Shown: positions 22,180 through 64,000 of the stretch, piece after piece
Layout of the letters: each line of letters begins with the position of its first letter
Position numbering within the stretch: the first letter of the stretch is position 1
From: Centroscyllium fabricii
Lineage: Eukaryota
Direction: 5' to 3'
Assembly: GCA_051313645.2 (NCBI GenBank)
Contig: JBNRSN020000005.1
Coordinates: forward strand, 243,660,001 to 243,724,000
DNA: 64,000 nucleotides
Made by a program: the position numbers and the translations under genes
The notes under the pieces: generated by a model
Databases searched by the model: none
Seen by the model: only the letters and a program-made list of their open reading frames with translations
Told to the model about the DNA's origin: nothing

Positions 22180-23268
22180 AACAGCAAAATACTGCGGACG
22201 CCGGAAATCTGAAACAACAACAGAAAATGCTGGAGAAACTCAGCAGGCCAGGCAGTATCGGTGGAGAGAGAAGCAGAGTTGACGTTTCAGGTCGATGACC
22301 TTTTTCAAAACTAGAGAAGCCGGGAGGGGAGATAGATTTTAAAGCATGTGGGGGATGGGGAGAGTGGGGGCTGAAAGAACAGCAACAGGCTAGAAGGCAG
22401 GGGAGATAAGAGATATGCGGAGAAATTGAAGAAACACAGGATGGCTCAGAATAGGTGTGAACAGCTTCAGCTGAGTAAAGAAAAAAGCCCAGATGAAAGT
22501 GTGGATTGAAAAAGAGAGAAAATGTATATCTGTAAAAAAGTGTAGTGGGGGCTGAGGTTATGATCTAAAATTGTTGAACTCTATGTTTAGTCCAGAGGGC
22601 TGTAGAGAGCCTAAACGAAAGAGGAGTTGCTGTTCCTCGAGTTTACGCTGGGCTTCCGTGGAACAATGCAACAGGCCACTGACAGTGAGGTCTGAATGGG
22701 AGTGGAATGGAGACTGAAAGTAACAGGCCACCGAGAGCTCGGTGTCCCCCTTACGGACTGAACGGAGGTGTTCCACGAAACGGTCACTCAATCTGCGTTT
22801 GGTCTCCCCGATGTAGAGGAGACCACATCGTGAGCAGCGAATACAGTATACTAAATTACAGGAAGTACACGTAAATCGCTGTTTCACCTGGAAGGGGTGT
22901 TTGGGGCCCTGGACAGTGGGAAGGAGGGAGGTAGAAGGGCATATGTTGCATCTCCTGCGCTTGCACGGAAAGGTGCCGGGCGAAGGGGTGCTGGGGGTGG
23001 TAAAGGAGTGGACTAGGGTGTCGCGGAGGGAGCGGTCCCTACGGAATGCGGAAAGGGGAGGTGATGGGAAGATGCGTTTGGTGGTGGGATCACGCTGGAG
23101 GTGGCGGAAATGGCGGAGGATGATCCGCTGAATGTGGAGGCTGGTGGGGTGATAGGTGAGGACAAGGGGAACCCTATCGTGGTTCCGGGAGGGAGGGGCA
23201 GGGGTGAGGGCAGAGGGCAGAAGTGCAGGAGATAGAACGGACACGGTCGAGGGCCGTGTCAACCACAC
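22180..23268 (-). mobile_element. Penelope-like element, 5'-truncated, with pseudo-LTR
   Basis: Contains the GIY-YIG ORF and a decayed hammerhead at 22277-22313. Confidence 0.9.
22558..23268 (-). pseudogene. Penelope ORF C-terminus: linker plus GIY-YIG endonuclease
   Basis: RVPLVLTYHP, CKRRRCNIC, NLVYCIRCSRCGLLYIGETKRRLSDRFVEH, GLNIEF; no RT domain and no true start. Confidence 0.92.
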
Positions 23269-23381
23269 GAAGGAGCAGCGCTCCGAAAGCTTGTGATTTC
23301 AAATAAAGCTGTTGGACTATAACCTGGTGTTGTGTGACTTCTTACAATTGTCCATCAGTTAAGCTACATATCCACTTAGAA

Positions 23382-31223: not shown

Positions 31224-31805
31224 CAGGTTGAAGTTCGTTAATCCGGCACCCGAAAAACCGGCAACTTCGAACGTCCGGCAATAATTTCCCTGACTGCCCT
31301 GCGCAAAATGGCCACCGCGATCGATGCTTCGTCGAATGATCTGCGCATGCGCCACCGAACGACGAGCGCATGCGCAGATCATTCACAATGGCCGAGCCGA
31401 TCCCGAGCAGAGCCTGGCCGCTGCGAGCCTCCCCGAGCCTGGCCGCTGGGAGCCTCCCCGAGCCTGGCCGCTGGGAGCCTCCCCGAGCCTGGCCGCTGCG
31501 AGCCTCCCCGAGCCTGGCCGCTGCGAGCCTCCCCGAGCCTGGCCGCTGCGAGCCTCCCAGAGCCTGGCCGCTGCGAGCCTCCCCGCTGCGAGCCTCCCCG
31601 AGCCTGGCCGCTGCGAGCCTCCCCAAGCCGGGTCTCCCCGAACGATCAGCGCATGCACAGACCACTCAAAATGGCCGCCGGCCTTTCGCAGCGGCCATTT
31701 TGAATGGTCTGCGCATGCGCTTGCCGAAACTTCAATCATTCGGGATTTTCACTTGTTCGGTACGGGCCTGGTCCCACCCGTGCCGGATTAACGAACTTCA
31801 ACCTG
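31224..31805. mobile_element. Tigger-like MITE with an internal minisatellite
   Basis: Perfect 26-bp TIR caggttgaagttcgttaatccggcac; TA TSD. Confidence 0.9.
31405..31625. repeat. 25-bp GC-rich minisatellite (~8-9 copies)
   Basis: Unit gagcctggccgctgcgagcctcccc. Confidence 0.9.
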
Positions 31806-32125
31806 TATAAGTGTGGTAACCATGTTATATACTGAATTTACCACTGTATTATTGTGCCAATAATGGGCTGTGCTTATGTAAGGCACTGCCCTGTAACCCG
31901 TGTAATACTGTTGGGAGCCAGGTCAGCCACACCTCTAACTCCTCCCCCAGGTGAGGCCCCTTATAGGTGGAGACTGACCGAGGCTCCTCATTCCTGTGCA
32001 GATGTTCGTTCGGAGGGTAGCTCCAAGCTTAGCGATTAAATGCCTTTAGTTACAGTAACTACTCATCGTCTCTTTTAATCAGAGGTATTGACGATACGTC
32101 AATTTTAATCGCTAAGAGTTTTAAA

Positions 32126-33490
32126 ATGGACAGCGGTGTCACCGTCCCCGCAATGGAGAGCGGTGCAGTTAAACCAGAGAAGCTGGACATCAGTCCCCAG
32201 GACCCTGCCGCCGCCACCACGTTCGAACACTGGTTCGGCCTCCTGGAGGCCTACATGGACGCCGCCAAGGCTACAACAGACGGGAACAAGTTACAGGTCC
32301 TCCGGTCGAGGATCTCCAGCAGGGTATTCTCCCTCATCAGAAATGCCTCAACCTACGCAGCGGCTGTGGAGAAGCTAAGGAAATGCTACGAGCGCCCGGT
32401 CCATTCGGTCTACGCCAGACATGTGCTTGCAACCAGATCGCAGCTACCGGGTGAGACTAACGAGCAGTTCGAGCAAGCGCTCCAGGCCCTGGTACGGGTC
32501 TGTGGCTGCCAAGCAAGAACGGCTGAAGAGGAGGCGAATCTCCTCGTTCGCGACGCATATGTAACTGGACTAAGGTGTGTGGAAGCCCGCCAGCGGCTGC
32601 TGGAGAAAGACACTTTGTCCCTCGAGGATGCGATGGCTATATCTAATTCAGTAGAGGGGGCCCGAAACAAATTGCAGGCGTACAGCGGCACTAACCCGCA
32701 TGCCTACGACATATGGGCCGCGCCACAACGGGCCCAGGTCTGGGCAGCACCACAACGGGTCGAGACCCCCACGATGGCTGCGACAGCCACCAAAGATAAG
32801 CGCTGTTACTTCTGCAACCAGGGACTGCACCCAAGAGCGAGATGCCCAGCCAGGACAGTGACCTGCGAGAGGTGCGCCAAGAAAGGACATTATGCTAAGG
32901 CCTGCAGATCAGCTCCAGCAGCGCCTAGCTCAAGGTACAACAGTGCAGCCTGTGAGAGCGCCGACAGACACCAGGTAAGCTGCAATAGCAGCGCGACCCA
33001 GCAACGGTCCGGGGGTAGAAGACAAGCGCCCCCATCTCCCACCCCGATGCGGCAAAGGCCGGCCAAGCGCAACCCCCCCAACGCGGCCGGCTGCGTGCGA
33101 ATCACGGGCACCGCCAACCCGACCACCGCGGCTCGCTGCGTGCGAATCACGGGCACCGCCAACCCAGTCACCGCGGTCCGCTGCGTGCGAATCACGGGCG
33201 CCGCCAGCGCGCTCACAGCGGCCCATCATGTGCGACCCCTCGGCGCCGCCATTTTGTATCCAGGGCCCCACCATGTGCGAGCCAGGGGCGCCGCCATTTT
33301 GTATCCAGGGCCCCACCATGTGCGAGCCAGGGGCGCCGCCATTTTGTCTCCAGGGCCCCACCATGTGCAAACCAGGGGCGCCGCCATTTTGTGTACAGCA
33401 CCGACCAGCAGGGGGCAAACACACACGGAAGCACACGGCTGCTTCAGCCAGACCCAGAGTGAACCAGGACAGGCCACATACCCTGTCTAA
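32126..33490 (+). CDS. gag: Element B gag (C-terminal part probably out of frame)
   Basis: KPEKLDISP, YARHVLATRSQ, LVRDAYVTG; knuckles CYFCNQGLHPRARC and CERCAKKGHYAKAC. Confidence 0.85.
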   Translation: MDSGVTVPAMESGAVKPEKLDISPQDPAAATTFEHWFGLLEAYMDAAKATTDGNKLQVLRSRISSRVFSLIRNASTYAAAVEKLRKCYERPVHSVYARHVLATRSQLPGETNEQFEQALQALVRVCGCQARTAEEEANLLVRDAYVTGLRCVEARQRLLEKDTLSLEDAMAISNSVEGARNKLQAYSGTNPHAYDIWAAPQRAQVWAAPQRVETPTMAATATKDKRCYFCNQGLHPRARCPARTVTCERCAKKGHYAKACRSAPAAPSSRYNSAACESADRHQVSCNSSATQQRSGGRRQAPPSPTPMRQRPAKRNPPNAAGCVRITGTANPTTAARCVRITGTANPVTAVRCVRITGAASALTAAHHVRPLGAAILYPGPHHVRARGAAILYPGPHHVRARGAAILSPGPHHVQTRGAAILCTAPTSRGQTHTEAHGCFSQTQSEPGQATYPV

Positions 33491-36396
33491 CTCCATTATG
33501 CCCATTAAGATAAACGGCTATACTGTTAACTGTCTGTTTGACACTGGAAGCACGGAGAGCTTTGTACATCCTGATACAGTGCAGCGCTGCGGACTGCAGG
33601 TCCTGCCCACAAACTACCAAGTCTCCCAAGCTTCACAGTCCCACACCGCGGACGTCACCGGCTACTGCTCCGTCACGCTTACAGTCAACGGGTGTGTGTA
33701 CCATAATTTTAAATTGTATACCCTCCAGCAGTTGTGTGCCCCAGCCTTACTAGGTTTGGATTTCCAGTGCCACCTCAAGAGCGTGACAATGGAGTTCGGC
33801 GGGACCTTGCCCCCCCTCACCGTCAGTAGCCGGGTCAATCCCTTCACAAAGCGGAGCCCGGCCTGCGGCCTCTCTACCCTGAAAATCGACCCCCCCCCTC
33901 GCTGTTCGCCAACCTCGACCCCAAGTGCAAACCTATTGCCACAAAGAGTCGGCGGTACAGTGTGGGGGATCGCACGTTTATCAGGTCGGAGGTCAGGCGG
34001 ATGCTGAAGGAGGGGATAATTGAAGCCAGCACCAGCCCCTGGCGTGCCCAAGTTGTAGTGGTGAAGTCTGGCGAGAAACAACAGCTGGTGATCGATTACA
34101 GCCAGACTATCAACCGCTGCACCGGGCTCGACGCCTCCCCCCTCCCCCGCATCTCAGACATGGTCAACCAGATCGCCCAGTATAAGGTGTTCTCCACGAT
34201 CGACCTTAAATCGGCGTATCATCAGCTCCCGATCCGGAAAGCCGACCGCCCCTACACTGCCTTCGAGGCGAACGGTCGGCTCTACCACTTCCTCCGGGTC
34301 CCCTTTGGCGTGACCAACGGAGTGTCAGTGTTCCAGCGGGAGATGGACCGTATGGTTGACCAAAATGAGTTGCAAGCCACCTTCCCCTACCTGGACAACG
34401 TGACCATCTGCGGCCACGACCAGCAGGACCACGATGCCAATCTGGCCAGATTTCTCGACACGGCGGATAAGCTGGACCTCACGTATAACAAAGACAAATG
34501 TGTCTTTAATACAGACCGGCTCGCCATCCTCGGATACGTGGTGGAGAACGGGGTCCTCGGCCCCGACCCACAGCGTATGCGACCCCTTCAGGAACTGCCC
34601 CTACCTCACAACCCCAAAGCCTTGAGGAGATGCCTAGGATTTTTCTCCTATTATGCACAATGGGTCCCACAGTTCGCAGACAAGGCTAGACCACTCCTCA
34701 AGGCTGCCGTTTTCCCCCTCGGATAAAGGAAGACATCATCAAGGCGACCATGCTCGCTGTTGATGAATCCATCCCTTTCCAGGTGGAGAGTGACGCTTCG
34801 GACTTTGCCCTTGCTGCCACCCTGAATCAGGCAGGCAGGCCCGTAGCGTTTTTCTCCCACACCCTACAGGGACCCGAAACTCGCCACTCAGCAGTGGAAA
34901 AGGAGGCCCAGGCCATTGTGGAGGCCGTGCGCTACTGGCGTCATTACCTGGCCGGTAAGCGTTTTACCCTGCTCACCGACCAACGGTTGGTGGCGTTTAT
35001 GTTTAATAATAAACAACGGGGTAAAATCAAGAATGATAAGATCCTGCGGTGGCGGATCGAACTCTCGACTTACGAGTATGACATTCTTTACCGACCAGGT
35101 AAACTCAATGAACCCCCGGACGCACTGTCCAGGGGAACGTGCGCCAGTGCCCAGCTAGACCGGCTGAAGGACCTCCACGACTGCCTTTGCCACCCGGGTG
35201 TCACCAGACTCGCCCACTTCGTCAGATCCCGTAGCCTCCCCTACTCCATCACGGAGATCAAGGCTATGACCTGAGAGTGCCCTGTCTGTGCCGAGTGCAA
35301 ACCCCACTTTTTCCGGCCAGACACGGCGCACCTCATCAAGGCCACCCGCCCTTTTGAACGTCTCAGCGTGGACTTCAAAGGCCCCCTCCCCACCACTGAC
35401 CGCAACTCATACTTCCTCACGGTAGTAGATGAGTTCTCCCGCTTCCCCTTCCCCTTCCCCAGCGCAGATATGACGAGCGCAACGGTGATAAAACACTTCA
35501 CCACGCTGTTCGCCATTTTCGGTCTCCCCAGCTACATCCATAGCGACCGGGGGTCATCGTTCATGAGCGATGAACTGCGTCAGTTTCTGCTCCAGAAAGG
35601 GGTTGCCACGAGCAGGACGACCAGTTATAACCCCCGGGGGAACGGCCAGGTAGAAAGGGAGAATGGGATCATTTGGAAGGCGGTCACCCTGGCTCTGAAG
35701 TCCAGAGGCCTTCCAGTGTCCCATTGGCAGGCAGTCCTCCCAGACGCGCTGCACTCTATACGCTCTCTCTTATGTACAGCTACTAACACCACCCCGCACG
35801 ATCTGATTTTTGCCTTCCCCAGGAAATCGACTTCGGGGACAGCTCTCCCTCCATGGCTGACGACACCGAGGCCGGTCTTCCTTAGGAGACATGTCCGTAG
35901 CCACAAGACCGACCCCCTGGTGGACAAGGTGCAGCTCCTACACGCAAACCCACATTATGCATTTGTGCAGTTCCCGGACGGGCGGGAGGACACCGTGTCC
36001 ATCAGGGACCTGGCGCCCGCAGGAAGCACCACCGCAGAGCCCCTGGTCGGCCAGCAGGCCACTCAGCCACTGTATCCAGAGCACCCACCAGGCATACGAT
36101 GGCCCCCGAGTTTTCCAGAGCCCCAGCAGTGGCCAGTGCAGGACCACCACCCGGACGGCTTGGACCAGCTGGACCCATCGCCACCAGAAGCCACGGCACC
36201 TGAGCAACGGTCACCACTGGCGGACTCGAGTGGCACGGACCAGGAGGCAACACCACCACCACCACCGGAACGCCGGCGGTCCTCCAGGCAGACACGACCG
36301 CCGGACAGACTGATTGTTAATTGTTCGGTCCATTCACCCCCCCCGGACTTAAAATTTTCAAGAAGGGGTGAATGTGGTAACCATGTTATGTACTGA
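33090..36396 (+). pseudogene. pol: Element B pol (protease, RT, RNase H, integrase) with frameshifts, a deletion at ~34720 and a stop at 35272
   Basis: LFDTGS; IDLKSAYHQ, PFGVTN, YLDN; SDAS..EKE..TDQ; HHCC motif; DFKGP..VDEFSRF..HSDRG..GNGQVER. Confidence 0.95.
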
Positions 36397-36662
36397 ATTT
36401 ACCACTGTATTATTGTGCCAATAATGGGCTGTGCTTATGTAAGGCACCGCCCTGTAACCCGTGTAATACTGTTGGGAGCCAGGTCAGCCACACCTCTAAC
36501 TCCTCCCCCAGGTGAGGCCCCTTATAGGTGGAGACTGACCGAGGCTCCTCATTCCTGTGCAGATGTTCGTTCGGAGGGTAGCTCCAAGCTTAGCGATTAA
36601 AAGCCTTTAGTTACGGTAACTACTCGTCGTCTCTTTTAATCAGAGGTATTGACAATACGTCA

Positions 36663-36970
36663 ATAAGAACACAAGAATTAGGAGCAGGAGTCAGCCATAC
36701 GGCCCCTCGAGTCTGCTCCGTCATTCAATAAGATCACGGCTGATCGTCAATCTCAACTCCACTTTCCCACCTGATCCCCATACCTGTTGATTCCCCTCGA
36801 GTCCAAAAATGTAATCAATCTCAGCTTTGAATATAGTCAACGACTGAGCCTCCACAGCCCTCTGGGGTAGAGAATTCCAAAGATTCACCACCCTCTGTGT
36901 GAAGAAATTTCTCCTCATCTCAATCCAAAATGGTCGACCCCTTATCCGGAGAGCATGGCCCATGGTTCTA
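36663..36970 (-). mobile_element. CR1 3' end
   Basis: EMRRNFFTQRVVNLWNSLPQRAVEA. Confidence 0.85.
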
Positions 36971-37049
36971 GCCCAATACCTTCACCGCAGCAATGGTTAA
37001 CTAACGGCTGAAATAAACACTAGGGCCACACCACAAAAGTATTTGCTAT

Positions 37050-37460
37050 ATAACAGAAAACGCTGGAAATACTCAGCAGGCCAGGCAGTGGAGGTGGAGA
37101 GAGAAACAGGGTTAATGTTTCAGGTCGAAGACCTTTCATCAGAACTGGAAAAAACAGGAGAGGGGATAGATTTTAAAGCAGGTAGGGGCTGGGGAAAGGC
37201 GGAGAGGGGGGTGAAAGAACCAAAGGGAAGATCAGTGACAGGATAGAAAGCGGGAGAGATTAAGAGACATTGAGAGACTGTAAGAGATATTCAAGGAACA
37301 CAGGATGGCTCTGGATGAAGTGTGAATGGCTCTGGCAGAGAGAAGAAAATAGAAAAAAGCCCAGACGAAAGTGTGGATTAAACCAATGCTGCCTGGCCTG
37401 CTGAGTTTCTCCAGCGTTTTCTGTTATTTTGGATTTCCAGCATCTGCAGGATTTTGCTAT
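37050..37460 (-). mobile_element. Penelope pseudo-LTR with an inverted fragment
   Basis: Homologous to 22190-22510. Confidence 0.75.
37111..37145 (-). ncRNA. Minimal hammerhead ribozyme motif
   Basis: Reverse complement reads gtt-CTGATGA-aAGGTC-ttc-GACCT-GAAA-ca-TT-aac. Confidence 0.7.
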
Positions 37461-37689
37461 CGTAAAAGTCTTTGCTAGGTTAGAGCCAACGGGCACCAGG
37501 ATACAAACTGACCAGCAGTGTCTAAACAGAGAGAGCAGGCCGTTTCTGCCCGAGCCTGCCCTGCACTCTCAACACAATGACACCTCCCCAGACTTTTTGC
37601 AGGAATTTATCGCTTCTGTCAGATATAGAGTTCAAGGACAGGAAACAACAGTAGGTCTGCATCTGGGTGGCAGGAAATGCCCATAAGAA

Positions 37690-38006
37690 AGAACTTGCAT
37701 TTACACAGGGCTTTTCACAAACTCAGGACATTCCAAAGTGCATTACAACCAATGAAGTATTTTTTGATGTGTAGTAACTGTTGTAACGTGGGAACGCAGC
37801 AACCAATCTGCGCACAGCAAGGTTCCACATGGGAACGCAGCAACCAATCTGCGCACAGCAAGGTCCCACAAACAGCTATGCAATAACGACCAGATAATTA
37901 TTTTTTTTAGTGATGTTGGTTCAGGGAGAAATATTGGCCAGGACGCTGAGGAAAACAACGCTCTCTTCTCTGATTAGTGCCACGGGATCTTTTACATCCA
38001 GCTCAG
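37690..38006 (-). mobile_element. Deu SINE 3' half; its 5' half resumes at 43061-43220 after element C
   Basis: The SINE body is continuous once 38007-43060 and one TSD copy are removed. Confidence 0.8.
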
Positions 38007-38298
38007 TGATGCGCAAATCAATCACGCCAGTCGTTGGTGAAAAGTAATTGAAGGCTTTTATTCACAAAGAACTGAAACTGGTCTGCGATGAGTCCGCCCA
38101 GAATGAGAGCCAGGTGGGCGGAGCATTCTCCTTTATACCCATACTCAGAGGCGGGGTCAGCCGGTCCAGGTCCAGGTCCTTACAGAAAGGTACAGATTTA
38201 TTAACACAAACTATATACAATAATAGCACAGTGTGAACCACACCAAATGGTTCATCACATTCACCCCTTACTCAAAAACAAGTCCCGCGGGGCGAATA

Positions 38299-41200
38299 TC
38301 AGCACTGTGTTATCAGTCTTTGAGGAGGTCGAACAGTCCGAACAGACCTGCGAGGCAGTGGCGGCTCTCGCGAATAGGCGGGAGCAGTCTCAATCGGAAA
38401 AGGCGCCGACGGAGTTTCCGACGTTAACAGGGACTCCACCGGTGGAAGAGGTACCTCAGGCGCAGGAAGATCTGGTGGTGGTGTAGCAGCCGCCGGAAGG
38501 GTATGCTGAGCAACGTGATGAGCTCCGTCGTGCATTGTGGGTGACGAGGGCCCCGATGTAGTGTGCGCAGGTGAACAAGAAGACGGCCCCTGTTGCGAAA
38601 ATGTGACCTGGGAGGGCAAGGGCTCCGCCAATGACTGTAAGTGAACGTCTCCAGCGGGCGCAAGGTCTCTAATCGAGACGGTGTCCTCACGCCCATCTGG
38701 GTACTCCACGTAAGCATACTGAGGGTTGGCATGCAGCAGGCGCACACGTTCAACAAGAGGGTCCGTCTTGTGTCCACGGACGTGCCTCCTAAGCAGAACC
38801 GGCCCCGGGTTGGTAAGCCACGTCGGCAGAGACGTCCCCGAAGTCGATTTCCTGGGGAAAGAGAAGAGTTTCTCGTGAGGCGTGCAACCGGTGGCTGTAC
38901 ACAAGAGGGAACGGGTAGCATGGAACGCATCCTGGAGCACCTCCTGCCAGTGGGAGGTTGAAAGGCCTCTGGATCGAAGGGCCAGGGTGATGGCCTTCCA
39001 GATGGTCCCATTATAACGTTCTACCTGACCGTTCCCCCGGGGGTTGTAACTGGTCATTCTGCTCGAGGCAACCCCCCTCACAAGCAGAAAATGACGCCGT
39101 TCGTCACTCATAAATGAGGACCCCCGGTCGCTGTGTATGAAGCCGGGAAGGTCGAAAATGGCAAATAGCGTGATAAGATGCTTTATCACTGTTGCACTCG
39201 TCATATCTGGGCATGGGAATGCAAAAGGGAAACGGGAGAACTCGTCAACCACAGTGAGAATGTATGAGTTACGGTTGGTAGAGGGGAGGGGACCTTTGAA
39301 GTCCACACTCAGGCGCTCGAATGGGCGGGTGGCCTTGATGAGGTGCGCCCTGTCAGGCCTGTAAAACTGGGGCTTGCACTCAGCACAGACAGGGCACTCC
39401 TGCGTCATCGCCTTGATCTCCGCAATGGAATAAGGGAGATTGCGTGATTTGACGAAGTGAGCGAGCCTGGTGACCCCCGGGTGGCAGAGATTAGCGTGGA
39501 GGGTGTTCAGACTACCCGACTGGGTGCTGGCACACGATCCTCGGGACAGGGCGTCCGGGGGACCGTTAAGCTTCCCTGGCCGGTACAGAATGTCGTACTC
39601 AAAAGCGGAGAGTTCGATCAGCCACCTGAGGATCTTGTCATTCTTGATCTTACCCCTCTGTTTATGGTGGAACATAAATGCTACTGACCGCTGGTCAGTA
39701 AGAAGGGTAAAACATTTACCGGCCAAATAGTGGCACCAATGGCGCACTGCTTCCACGATTGCTTGGGCCTCCTTTTCCACTGAAGAGTGGCGGACTTCAG
39801 GGCCATGTAGGGTACGGGAGAAGAAAGTGACGGGCCTGCCTGGTTAAGGGTGGCGGCCAGGGCGAAGTCTGAGGCATCGCTTTCGACCTGGAAGGGAAGA
39901 GACTCATCAATGGCGTGTATGGTTGCCTTGATGATGTCTTGCTTGATATGCGAAAATGCAATTTGGGCCTCTAACGGGAGCGGGAAGGAGGTAGCTCTGA
40001 GGAGAGGCCGGGCCTTATCAGCATAATGGGGAACCCATTGTGCATAATACGAGAAAAACCCCAGGCATCTCCTCAAAGATTTGGGGGAGTGCGGCAGGGG
40101 CAGCTCCTGAAGGGGGCGCATACGTTCGGGATCAGGGCCGAGGACCCCGTTCTCAATTACGTAGCCGAGGATAGCCAACCGGTTAGTGTTGAAAATGCAC
40201 TTATCCTCATTGTAAGTGAGGTTCAGACGCTGGGCCGTACGGAGAAACCTGTCCAAATTGGCATCATGATCTTGCTGGTCATGGCCGCAGATCGTGACAT
40301 TGTCCAAATACGGGAATGTGGCCTGCAAATGCGACTGGTCAACCATTCGGTCCATCTCCCGTTGGAAGACCGAAACTCCGTTGGTAACCCCAAAGGGGAC
40401 CCGGAGGAAGTGAAAAAGGCGCCCATTTGCCTCGAAGGCAGTGTATTTACGGTCCTCAGCTCTGATGGGGAGCTGGTGATAGGCTGACTTAAGGTCGATG
40501 GTGGAGAAGACCTTATACTGAGCAATCTGATTGACCATGTCATTGATCCTAGGAAGCGGGTAAGCGTCGAGCCCAGTGTAGCCGGTTAATGGTCTGACTA
40601 TAGTCAATGACCATGCGCTGTTTGTCACCCAACTTAACCACTACCACCTGGGCCCGCCACGGGCTGTTACTGGCCTCGATGATGCCCTCCCGCAACAACT
40701 GAGCAACCTCTGCCTTAATAAAGGTGCGGTCCCCCGCGCTGTATCGCCGACTCTTGGTTGCAATGGGCTTGCAGTCAGGGTCAAGGTTGGCGAACAGCGA
40801 GGGGGGTCTATCTTCAAGGTAGACAGACCGCAAGAGGAGTGTGGTTGTGAGGCAGGGCAGTCACGGCTGCTGACCGTGAGAGGAGGCAGGGGACCGCCGT
40901 ACACCATCGTCAAGCTCTGCAGGTGGCACTGGAAATCCAGGCCAAGCAACACAGGGGCGCAGAGCTGTGGGTGGACGTACAGTGGAAAGTTGCGGTATGT
41001 CGTCCCCTTCACAGTAATGGTGACTGTACAGCAGCCGATGACGTCCACAGTCTGGGACTCGGAGGCGAGGGAGATTTTACGATGTGTGGGCCTAACCCTG
41101 AGGGAATAACGGCTCACTGTATCAGGGTGTATGAAGCTCTCCGTACTCCCAGTGTCGAACAGACAGCGGGTGAGGTGCCCCTCCACCCGGACAGGCATCA

Positions 41201-41342
41201 TTGACAAAATAAGAGACGGGTTCGGGGCCATAGAGGCAAGTGTGGTGTGCGCGCTGGGGCCCTTGTGCAAAGCTGGGTCCGCGGGTGATGGCGGCGCCCG
41301 TGATTCGCACATGGCGGGGTTTCGGACCGTCGGGTGAGTCAT
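38299..41342 (-). pseudogene. pol: Element C pol (PR, RT, RNase H, IN) with three frameshifts
   Basis: LFDTGS, IDLKSAYHQ, YLDN, SDAS, HHCC and DDE integrase motifs; highly similar to element B pol. Confidence 0.95.
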
Positions 41343-42802
41343 GCGCCCGAATGCTGAATTGGTCTGGAGTGGTCTGTTGCTGCTGCCAGAATCGTAGTGG
41401 TTGCTGTGAAGTTGCCTGTTACTGCATGAGCCTGTTCTTTTAAATTGTTCCTACACCAAGATGGCGGTGTCACGTGATGGGGTGGGCCCGCTGCAGTCGG
41501 AATGCGGGCTGTCCTATACAAAGATGGCGGCGTCACGTGATGGGGCGGGGCCGCAGCAGCCGTGACGCAGGAAGATGGCGTCATCATGTGATGGGGCGGG
41601 GCCTCTGTTGCTGGGATGCAGGCCGTCCTGCACGAAGATGGCGGCGTCACGTGATGGGGCGGGGCCGCTACTGCCGTCCTGCACGAAGATGGCAGCGTCA
41701 CGTGATGGGGCGGGGCCTCTGCTGCCCGGAGGCCCGACGGCACCCGCGTTTCGCGCCGCTCCAACGAAGAAGGCGGCCGCACCCTCAAAGATGGCGATAC
41801 AGCGCGGGATCCGACGGAGGGAAAAGACGCCCGCGCCCCCAACGATGGCGGAGCGCAGGAAACGACGCTGGCAGGCCGCACCCGAGGCAAGGTAAGTAGG
41901 AATTGTTCTGGGGGCCGCTGTTGGGGGGCGCCAATTACCCGAGGCCACTCTGTGGCGTGGACATCGCAGGCTGCTGCCGTTTTGCTTGCAGATTCCGGGG
42001 CCGATCGGCAGACCTTCGCAAAGTGGCCCTTCTTGCCACATTTGGAGCAGGATGACGACTTTGCTGGGCAGGAGCTTCGTGGATGGCGTTTCTGGCCACA
42101 AAAATAGCATTTCAGAGGCACTGGCTGTCCAGATGGCGCCGTGGCCGCCGTCGAGGGCGCCGAACGCGAGTCCCAAGGCCCAGGGGAAACCGTGTGGGAG
42201 CCGTGCCCAGTGTATGAATCCAGTCTTCGGAGGGCCCCATCCACCGCATTGGAGAGCTTCACCGCCTGATTCAGGGACAAATTATCCTGCTCGAGCAGGC
42301 GGGTGCGAGCTGGGGCCGATCTGATTCCTGCCACGTAGGCATCGCAGACGAGGAGGTCCATGTGCTCCTGGGCATTAACAGGGGCACATCCGCAGCGCAG
42401 AGCGAGAGCTTGAAGAGCCTCCAGAAACGCTTCATTCGACTCACCATGCTGTTGACTCCGCGTGGCGAGTAGATGGCGAGCGTAGACGGCGTTGACTGGC
42501 TGGAGGTATCGAGCCCTCAGCAGCTCCAACGCTGCATCGTAGTCAGTGGCATTCTTAATAATAGAATATACCCTGCCACTCACGCAGGAGACCAGGACTT
42601 GTCTCCTGTGCGCATCGCTGACTTCGGCCACTACCAGGAACGATTCTAAACAGCTCTGCCAGTGCTCAAAATCGTCCGACGCGTTCGGTGCCTGGGGGTT
42701 GAGGTCGAGAGTTTTCGGTTTAAGGGTAGTTTTCCAGCTTTCTGAAGGTGTTGGCTGGTGTGCTGCTGGCTGGTGGCTCTGTTGTTGATCATCATTCTGC
42801 AT
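41339..42802 (-). CDS. gag: Element C gag plus repeat linker (start coordinate approximate)
   Basis: KPKTLDLNP, YARHLLATRSQ; knuckles CYFCGQKRHPRSSC and CSKCGKKGHFAKVC. Confidence 0.85.
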   Translation of the reverse strand: MQNDDQQQSHQPAAHQPTPSESWKTTLKPKTLDLNPQAPNASDDFEHWQSCLESFLVVAEVSDAHRRQVLVSCVSGRVYSIIKNATDYDAALELLRARYLQPVNAVYARHLLATRSQQHGESNEAFLEALQALALRCGCAPVNAQEHMDLLVCDAYVAGIRSAPARTRLLEQDNLSLNQAVKLSNAVDGALRRLDSYTGHGSHTVSPGPWDSRSAPSTAATAPSGQPVPLKCYFCGQKRHPRSSCPAKSSSCSKCGKKGHFAKVCRSAPESASKTAAACDVHATEWPRVIGAPQQRPPEQFLLTLPRVRPASVVSCAPPSLGARASFPSVGSRAVSPSLRVRPPSSLERRETRVPSGLRAAEAPPHHVTLPSSCRTAVAAPPHHVTPPSSCRTACIPATEAPPHHMMTPSSCVTAAAAPPHHVTPPSLYRTARIPTAAGPPHHVTPPSWCRNNLKEQAHAVTGNFTATTTILAAATDHSRPIQHSGA

Positions 42803-43369
42803 TCTTGTAACTTTGTGAATAAAATTGATGCGCAAATCAATCACACCAGTTGTTGGTGAAAAGTAATTGAAGGCTTTTGTTCACAAAGAACTGAACCTGG
42901 TCTGCGATGAGTCCGCCCGGAATGAGAGCCAGGTGGGCGGAGCATTCTCCTTTATACCCATACTCAGAGGCGGGGTCAGCCGGTCCAGGTCCTTACAGAA
43001 AGGTACAGATTTATTAACACAAACTATATACAATAATAGCACACCAAATGGTTCATCACACTCAGAGGGCAGACGGGGCCTCGCTTTAACGGCTCATGTG
43101 AAAGACAGCACCTCGGACAGTACAGCACTCCCTCAGTGCTGCACTGGGAGTGTCAGCCTGGATTGTGTGCTCAAATCCTTGGAGTGGGACTTGAACCCAC
43201 AACCTTCGGACTCAAGAGGCGACAACTGCCTATAAGTAACTTCCTGAGTTCAAAGCCAGGGTGCAGCAAGCCTAGTTAGCAGAGACAGTGAGGTATAAAC
43301 AAATTGTGGTGGATAAAAACAAACAAGGAAAATACCTGGTTCTGTCCTATTTCATAAAATTACATAGAA

Positions 43370-62826: not shown

Positions 62827-64000
62827 AGTTTGTGTTGCTCTCTCTCTCCCCACAGGCCCCCCCCCCCCAGTTTGTGTTGCTCTCTCTCTCCCCCCCCCCC
62901 CCCAGTTTGTGTTGCTCTCTCTCCCCCCCAGTTTGTGTTGCTCTCTCTCCCCCCCCCCCCCAGTTTGTGTTGCTCTCTCTCCCCCCAGTTTGTGTTGCTC
63001 TCTCTCTCCCCCCCCAGTTTGTGTTGCTCTCTCTCCCACCCCCCCAGTTTGTGTTGCTCTCTCTCCCCCCCCAGTTTGTGTTGCTCTCTCTCCCCCCCGT
63101 TTGTGTTGCTCTCTCTCTCCCCACAGTTTGTGTTGCTCTCTCCCCCCCCAGTTTGTGTTGCTCTCTCTCCCCCCCCCCAGTTTGTGTTGCTCTCTCTCCC
63201 CCCCCCAGTTTGTGTTGCTCTCTCTCTCTCCCCCCAGTTTGTGTTGCTCTCTCTCTCTCCCCCCAGTTTGTGTTGCTCTCTCTCTCCCCACAGCCCCCCC
63301 CCCCGAGTTTGTGTTGCTCTCTCTCCCCCCCCCAGTTTGTGTTGCTCTCTCCCCCCCCAGTTTGTGTTGCTCTCTCTCTCCCCCCCAGTTTGTGTTGCTC
63401 TCTCTCCCCCCCCCCAGTTTGTGTTGCTCTCTCTCTCCCCCCCCACAGTTTGTGTTGCTCTCTCTCCCCCCCCCCCCCAGTTTGTGTTGCTCTCTCCCCC
63501 CCCCCCAGTTTGTGTTGCTCTCTCCCCCCCCCCAGTTTGTGTTGCTCTCTCTCTCTCCCCCCAGTTTGTGTTGCTCTCTCTCCCCCCCCCAGTTTGTGTT
63601 GCTCTCTCTCTCCCCCCAGTTTGTGTTGCTCTCTCTCCCCCCCCAGTTTGTGTTGCTCTCTCTCCCCCCCCCAGTTTGTGTTGCTCTCTCTCTCCCCCCA
63701 GTTTGTGTTGCTCTCTCTCTCTCCCCCCCCCAGTTTGTGTTGCTCTCTCTCCCCCCTCCCCCAGTTTGTGTTGCTCTCTCCCCCCCCAGTTTGTGTTGCT
63801 CTCTCTCCCCCCCCAGTTTGTGTTGCTCTCTCTCCCCCCAGTTTGTGTTGCTCTCTCTCCCCCCAGTTTGTGTTGCTCTCTCTCTCCCCCCAGTTTGTGT
63901 TGCTCTCTCTCCCCCCCACAGTTTGTGTTGCTCTCTCCCCCCCCGTTTGTGTTGCTCTCTTCCCCCCCCCAGTTTGTGTTGCTCTCTCTCCCCCCCGTTT
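62827..64000. repeat. ~30-bp minisatellite running off the window end
   Basis: Unit cagtttgtgttg(ct)n(c)n, roughly 35-40 copies with variable CT and C runs. Confidence 0.97.

Follow-up and report, generated by a model that had tools for sequence, protein, structure and literature searches.

Element C of Centroscyllium fabricii is a damaged Ty3/Gypsy retrotransposon that lacks a chromodomain, and the 14 bases that follow its 5′ LTR are probably a self-primer binding site, whose primer would come from the element's own 5′ leader. Throughout a clade of animal relatives this site is complementary to an arm within the LTR, keeps a fixed register with it and covaries with it; a tRNA-type site is absent, and a stem directly after the arm is enriched. 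The best reading of this arrangement is tRNA-free self-priming resembling that of Tf1, in an animal clade outside the chromoviruses, with a predicted transcription start, cut and priming step.

Results

We analysed a window of 64,000 nucleotides (the whole stretch of DNA), in which element C and a second element of the same clade, B, lie on opposite strands (Table 1). As the earlier note had described, the 5′ LTR of C ends in GCATCA and is followed by a single A and then by the 14-mer TTTTATTCACAAAG. The exact complement of this 14-mer, CTTTGTGAATAAAA, is found in the 3′ LTR, and the 5′ LTR carries a version that is one base off, CTTTGTGAACAAAA; calculated from base composition, the chance of a 14-nt match anywhere in the LTR is ~1e-6. 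The corresponding site of element B, TTTTAATCGCTAAG, matches the 3′ LTR at 14/14 positions (36589-36602) and the 5′ LTR at 13/14. Three helix positions differ between B and C, each changed on both strands, and the reported junction hairpin of C is also present. A clade-wide occurrence of this hairpin was rejected, as among 19 families only B and C have one of such form (6-7 bp, short loop).

Table 1 Coordinates of the annotated parts of elements B and C
Feature	Position	Strand	Remark
Element B, same clade as C	31812..36662	+	LTRs 31812-32101 and 36373-36662; target duplication ATAAG
Element B arm (32028-32041), GCCTTT/AGAGGT stem, junction hairpin (32087-32103) and primer site (32103-32116)	32028..32116	+	
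Element C target-site duplication CTGAG	43061..43065	-	second copy 38002-38006
Element C 5′ LTR	42826..43060	-	235 nt, TG...CA
Element C TATAAA (42956-42951) and TCATTCC (42925-42919)	42919..42956	-	second candidate start; same spacing in element B
Element C initiator-like TCAGTT	42889..42894	-	immediately 5′ of the arm; candidate transcription start
Element C LTR arm, predicted self-primer	42875..42888	-	private T-to-C change at 42879
Predicted cut directly 3′ of the element C arm	42875/42874	-	AAA|GCC; inferred
Element C junction hairpin ATTGAT-ttgcgc-ATCAAT	42824..42841	-	spans LTR end, spacer and first primer-site base
Element C one-base spacer (A) between LTR end and primer site	42825	-	A in 15/19 families
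Element C primer-binding-site position	42811..42824	-	complements the LTR arm; start not TGG
Element C gag (two CCHC knuckles)-protease-RT-RNase H-integrase	38299..42802	-	four reading frames (broken), RT motif YLDN, no chromodomain
Element C polypurine tract	38260..38273	-	adjoins the 3′ LTR
Element C 3′ LTR	38007..38259	-	253 nt
Element C 3′ LTR copy of the arm	38056..38069	-	with AATAAA; 14/14 complementary to the primer site

Both elements have the features of a Ty3/Gypsy LTR retrotransposon: TG...CA LTRs, 5-nt target duplications, a polypurine tract and the coding order gag (with CCHC knuckles), protease, RT, RNase H, integrase, distributed over several frames and with no env. The best match among solved structures was Ty3 Gag-Pol. 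We found no chromodomain match in B or C, none in seven long relatives at an E value of 0.1, and none in the precomputed domains of the 120 relatives listed. The integrase does not precede RT in B or C, and the feature by which Gmr1-like Gypsy elements are described in the accessible portion of PMC3601003, integrase before RT, is thus absent. Among the matches listed, the nearest named proteins belong to sharks and rays, with RT identity reaching 82%, followed by those of corals, a prawn, a mussel and a nematode; many relatives consist of one frame of about 1,100-1,450 amino acids. Scans of viral contigs turned up no relatives, and sequence motifs gave no matches in the searched portions of the supplements of a mollusc survey (PMC6238403).

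Several side observations concern these coding regions. Elements B and C (31812-43060) are arranged tail to tail with 1.3 kb between them, and are ~78% identical in pol. Both shift frame from gag to protease across a repetitive linker, where close relatives are single frames. At the catalytic motif of RT, YxDN replaces YxDD in B (33830-34723, plus strand) and in C (39684-40640, minus strand), and YLDN, YMDN or YIDN is found in 102 of the 120 relatives listed; YxDN across a whole clade is unusual. In the accessible part of PMC2148107, Ty1 RT with the change D211N at the equivalent position retained polymerase activity in vitro. Twelve of the related loci (L001-L010, L012 and L013) are in records titled as bacterial genome assemblies that contain Gypsy retrotransposons, which is likely eukaryotic contamination.

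We collected 93 related loci, 13 from one scan and the best 80 of 273 from another, giving 95 with B and C. A match to the gag N-terminus was present in 41 of the 95, of which 31 were scored; the other ten either lay too near a contig end (L023, L044, L063) or had no LTR junction at the gag match (L037, L045, L056, L059, L062, L085, L086). Among the 31, the registers of four loci were corrected by hand and two degenerate loci were placed by hand. L023, L059 and L024 were added from a blind scan, redundant copies were cut to one per family, and the degenerate L081 was left out of the count of 22 families.

The 22 well-preserved families share one layout: an LTR arm ending AAA|RCC, the LTR end CA, one spacer base, and TTT. 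The A-run of the arm is mostly followed by GCC or ACC, and the LTR-end CA lies 24-68 nt beyond the arm. The helix formed by arm and site is 12-18 nt long, mostly 13-14, in a register that is fixed over the 22 families. In all 31 loci, and in the three found blind, the 3′ end of the arm pairs with the base one spacer past the CA. Both polarity and register fit a primer, because the 3′ end of the arm sits where the 3′ end of a primer must, pointing into U5. The blind scan, for which the allowed contexts were picked after seeing the data, detected a perfect match of at least 11 nt in the context of the layout at 29/95 loci (that of L042 is a contig-end artefact) versus 4/285 shuffles.

None of the 34 loci with the layout has a primer site starting with TGG, the start found by the same scan in all three distant Gypsy control loci with an LTR pair (L009, L010, L013). 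The metazoan Gypsy clades Mag A/B/C, CsRN1, Cigr-1 and MolGy are primed by tRNA; the tRNA-complementary site with a TGG start that distinguishes them is absent in the B/C clade. ARAGORN found no tRNA genes in the 64-kb window. The site sequences track the LTR of their own element, with a mean of 8.9 out of 9 variable pairs matched within a family and 5.1 across families. No single host RNA fits all of the sites, because they vary with their own LTR.

At helix positions 1-13 in the 22 families, 281 of 286 pairs were Watson-Crick, none was G-U and five were mismatched. The counts were 247, 3 and 10 of 260 in a set of 20 families that includes the degenerate L081, and 380, 4 and 19 of 403 in all 31 loci. 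Pairing is 15/20 at position 14 and declines to 3-5/20 beyond position 17. For positions 4-13 we mapped the changes on a 28-row gag tree (a quick IQ-TREE of gag N-termini, leaving out 3 of the 31 loci and with the L080 row partly out of frame), and counted 42 compensatory, pair-to-pair changes versus 5 uncoupled ones. A MAFFT alignment of 23 segments placed the arms in register and gap-free, with the A-run, CA and TTT columns invariant, and RNAalifold predicted from it exactly the 14-bp helix. Of the 14 pairs, 11 changed on both sides, with 68 cells changed on both sides and none on one, and the covariation score was 0.626, compared with 0.143 for shuffles and no more than 0.081 for shifted registers, although the segments of this alignment (A4) had been trimmed around the helix already found and the counts lean towards it. 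The helix thus covaries in a larger alignment, far beyond B and C, and withstands the refutation that the earlier note had proposed for it.

The earlier note had gone further and taken the changes between B and C as compensatory evidence for a selected helix. This was overstated as regards selection: covariation by itself is no proof that an RNA helix is selected, because copying of the primer would couple the arms mechanically. What the covariation demonstrates is coupling; selection is evident from the conserved layout, not from the individual pairs. The lack of G-U in the main helix suggests that the site is re-copied from the primer in each cycle; perfect pairing could alternatively reflect strong selection in young copies. 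In L021, the single change that sets it apart from four sister copies (97.8-98.9% identity) occurs in both LTR arms and also in the site, as template copying would predict. In L019 the two LTRs share an arm change that is missing from the site, so the coupling is not immediate. These are one case each, and they do not discriminate between a 5′ and a 3′ primer. As a separate observation, complementarity in L019 (4917-5001) reaches 19 positions where its sister copies break at 14, which may record longer primer copying.

The zero G-U pairs also resemble DNA copying, as would be expected if the match were a by-product at the DNA level, a recurrent short inverted copy made in strand transfer, with no RNA helix involved. 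We give this explanation very little credence, since helix length and register are fixed over 22 families, the stem adjoining the helix does use G-U (see below) and there is no other primer site.

In both B and C the single mismatch to the site is in the 5′ LTR, as the earlier note had pointed out, but this coincidence is unremarkable. With 5 substitutions between the LTRs of C and 6 between those of B, each element has a probability of ~0.26 of a hit in the 14-mer, and the two changes are of different kinds, that of B keeping ATTAAA and that of C destroying AATAAA. The two LTRs of one insertion are identical at the start, and a mismatch in the 5′ arm is therefore a later mutation. Contigs of public runs carry the AATAAA allele at 42879 at 737,484 of 737,495 depth units (X1), at all 40,791 (X5) and at all 9.26 (X10); contigs of X15 are without coverage of this position, and 5′, 3′ and solo LTRs are pooled in the contigs. 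A change systematically present in 5′ LTRs would show despite this pooling, so the change at 42879 is a private mutation. A suggested over-representation of 5′-LTR mismatches in the 14-mer was rejected as well: in 17 elements with both LTRs, two of which are 127-nt contig-end overlaps, four arm mismatches were unique to the 5′ LTR and two to the 3′ LTR (p=0.69), and the family contigs restore T at ~100% depth. In a minor LTR variant, three linked changes fall within the arm (42882-42885); it was seen at ~2.5-3% of depth in X1 and X5 and at 30% in X10, and points to a subfamily with a different primer. A loose end in X12, which comes from another run, carries a primer-site variant with two of these changes.

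The arm contains AATAAA or ATTAAA in 14/23 families (twelve 5′ arms, C through its 3′ LTR, and L023), which by eye exceeds what a shared TAAA would explain, and it may have a role in polyadenylation. The helix might accordingly have been selected to hide the 5′ poly(A) signal, with some other primer starting synthesis: the complement follows in cis only the 5′ copy, which would tell the LTRs apart, and in C the hexamer arm is followed downstream by GT-rich sequence. As the main function, which the earlier note had proposed, this is improbable. The hexamer is not invariant; 7/23 families (L014, L015, L016, L017, L018, L024, L059) have an intact arm with GTTAAA, TTTAAA or GTGAAAA in its place, although four of them form one branch and these are not seven independent losses, and two of the 23 are degenerate at the hexamer. 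L015 and L016 have a canonical hexamer outside the helix, in the loop, and L005 has one in arm and loop alike. Moreover, a helix with a purely structural role would not have to hold a one-base register to the LTR end or shun G-U, the helix occupies the sole place for a primer and varies with the LTR, and the 5′ mismatch bias is missing.

Hiding of the 5′ poly(A) signal is thus likely at most a side benefit, one that may help most families without being the feature conserved in all. HIV-1 and similar 5′ LTRs, which are primed by tRNA, have a poly(A)-signal occlusion hairpin within R. It likewise covers the hexamer, whereas in the B/C clade the helix partner is the primer site itself, and the seven families above can dispense with the hexamer. 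We found no poly(A)-ended contigs among the 95 loci. A second AATAAA is present in U3 of element C (43010-43015, minus strand, and the matching place of the 3′ LTR), upstream of the TATA-like box, and is absent from B; if used, it would terminate transcripts ahead of R.

A stem of at least 4 bp beginning right after the arm was found in 16/19 families, compared with 7.2 in shuffles (0/2000 shuffles as high). In a search that allowed G-U, 13/72 of its pairs were G-U, and its first pair can be G-C, G-U or A-U, as expected for a structural RNA stem. The partner ends at least 28 nt downstream (28-46 nt, in U5) in 7/16 families, an arrangement that would be easier to accommodate in the 5′ leader than at a 3′ end carrying poly(A). 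In element C this stem has only 3 bp, and the predicted fold gave z -0.61 with a longer leader, no better than shuffles, and z -2.35 with a short leader. A motif A-N-T-Y, initiator-like and chosen post hoc, places its A 16-18 nt ahead of the cut in 16/22 families, versus at most 6 in non-overlapping windows further upstream. The pair of TATA-like and TCATTCC motifs common to B and C would place the start 35-38 nt upstream of the arm, unlike in Tf1.

These features bear on whether the primer is, instead, the arm copy of the 3′ LTR, on the same or a second packaged RNA and cut after the A-run. Such a primer would explain all of the complementarity counts equally well; the change in both arms and the site of L021 would need one generation and not two; and the argument from the 5′ end would fall away if transcription of B and C began far upstream of the arm. 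We nevertheless think a 3′ LTR source unlikely, as B favours the local 5′ fold (z -4.11), the stem after the arm in many cases requires U5 downstream of it, and the initiator-like motif stands at the helix boundary in most families.

In the preferred reading, with a primer from the 5′ end, the 5′ leader RNA would fold back so that the arm pairs with the site after the LTR. By analogy with Tf1, the RNase H of the element would then cut the RNA directly behind the A-run (AAA|RCC), releasing a 3′ end from which minus-strand DNA would be primed across the spacer and U5. During plus-strand synthesis the primer would be copied back into the site, so that the arms would stay matched as a matter of course; going by the title of a 2006 paper by Atwood-Moore, the Tf1 primer is reportedly not removed. 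In the families with AATAAA or ATTAAA in the arm, the helix could secondarily hide the 5′ poly(A) signal.

Discussion

To our knowledge, self-priming has been proven only for Tf1 of fission yeast, and it is regarded as a hallmark of the Tf1/sushi chromoviruses. In the open-licence PMC and bioRxiv literature we found no published account of it in a chromodomain-less animal clade. 'Self-primed Gypsy' families of a sea anemone were reportedly described in Repbase Reports by Kapitonov and Jurka in about 2007 and, if so, may be the B/C clade.

The accessible portions of several papers describe self-priming for Tf1/sushi chromoviruses and predict it for the plant Tcn1 and TAR lineages (PMC6317226, PMC4600332, PMC10085805, PMC2864245). 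Tf1/Tf2 of Schizosaccharomyces pombe, Tj1, Tosmo1-3, Tcry1 and the other Tf1/sushi elements also lack a tRNA site, and their site after the 5′ LTR complements a segment of the LTR (PMC7175516, PMC10085805, PMC4600332, PMC5341516, as far as accessible). In Tf1 itself, according to the accessible text of PMC7175516 and PMC5341516, pairing with the site involves the first 11 bases, and RNase H cleaves behind base 11. The B/C clade shares with Tf1/sushi the Ty3/Gypsy domain order and extra stems beside the central duplex (described for Tf1/sushi in the same partly accessible sources). It differs in having no chromodomain, a helix of 13-14 nt and not 11, one unpaired spacer base, an arm ending in an A-run, often as AATAAA/ATTAAA, and the RT motif YxDN; its LTRs are ~120-300 nt long, compared with a mean of 572 for a Sushi set in the available part of PMC3601003. 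Of the Tf1 'pretzel', as presented in the accessible portion of PMC10085805, the central duplex is present, whereas the third duplex, from leader to LTR, was not found above chance, leader-to-loop stems averaging 4.3 bp versus 4.4 in shuffles. We therefore do not file the B/C clade under Tf1/sushi, as it lacks the chromodomain and pretzel features, although it would be Tf1-like in its working.

For plant Tcn1, a chromovirus, and for TAR/Houba/Osr-1, of the Ty1/copia group, self-priming was likewise predicted, in the accessible text of PMC6317226, from complementarity between LTR and site alone. These cases suggest that self-priming is not confined to one lineage; they belong to other lineages and other hosts than the B/C clade. 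If our reading is true, a chromodomain-less clade of cartilaginous fish, corals, prawn, mussel and nematode uses a different primer geometry, and tRNA-free priming is commoner than thought. It would then bear on a question posed in the accessible part of PMC3601003, whether self-priming is an ancestral trait or was gained more than once. The elements would also escape control by tRNA fragments, and would be missed by tools that seek tRNA sites. For covariation analysis there is a caution, in that copying of a primer can give perfect compensatory change without pair-by-pair selection.

A more far-reaching version of the argument is tentative, and we hold it doubtful in its entirety. Here, a widespread chromodomain-less Gypsy clade of animals would have evolved tRNA-free priming independently of Tf1/sushi, with a segment bearing the poly(A) signal as the primer; the helix would hide the 5′ signal in the nucleus and be cut after the A-run later, the RT would be naturally YxDN, and the primer in fish would be an internal or 3′ segment and not the start of the RNA.

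Other features of the window were noted in passing. A near-perfect 208-nt inverted repeat with a 5-nt spacer (337-757, 99% complementary) is MITE-like or an assembly fold-back. An ORF on the minus strand (22561-23298) matches a GIY-YIG domain (E 1.3e-4) and is possibly a Penelope-like fragment. A 25-nt tandem repeat (31360-31649) lies just upstream of element B, and a minisatellite of 27-30-nt units (62858-64000) occupies the end of the window.
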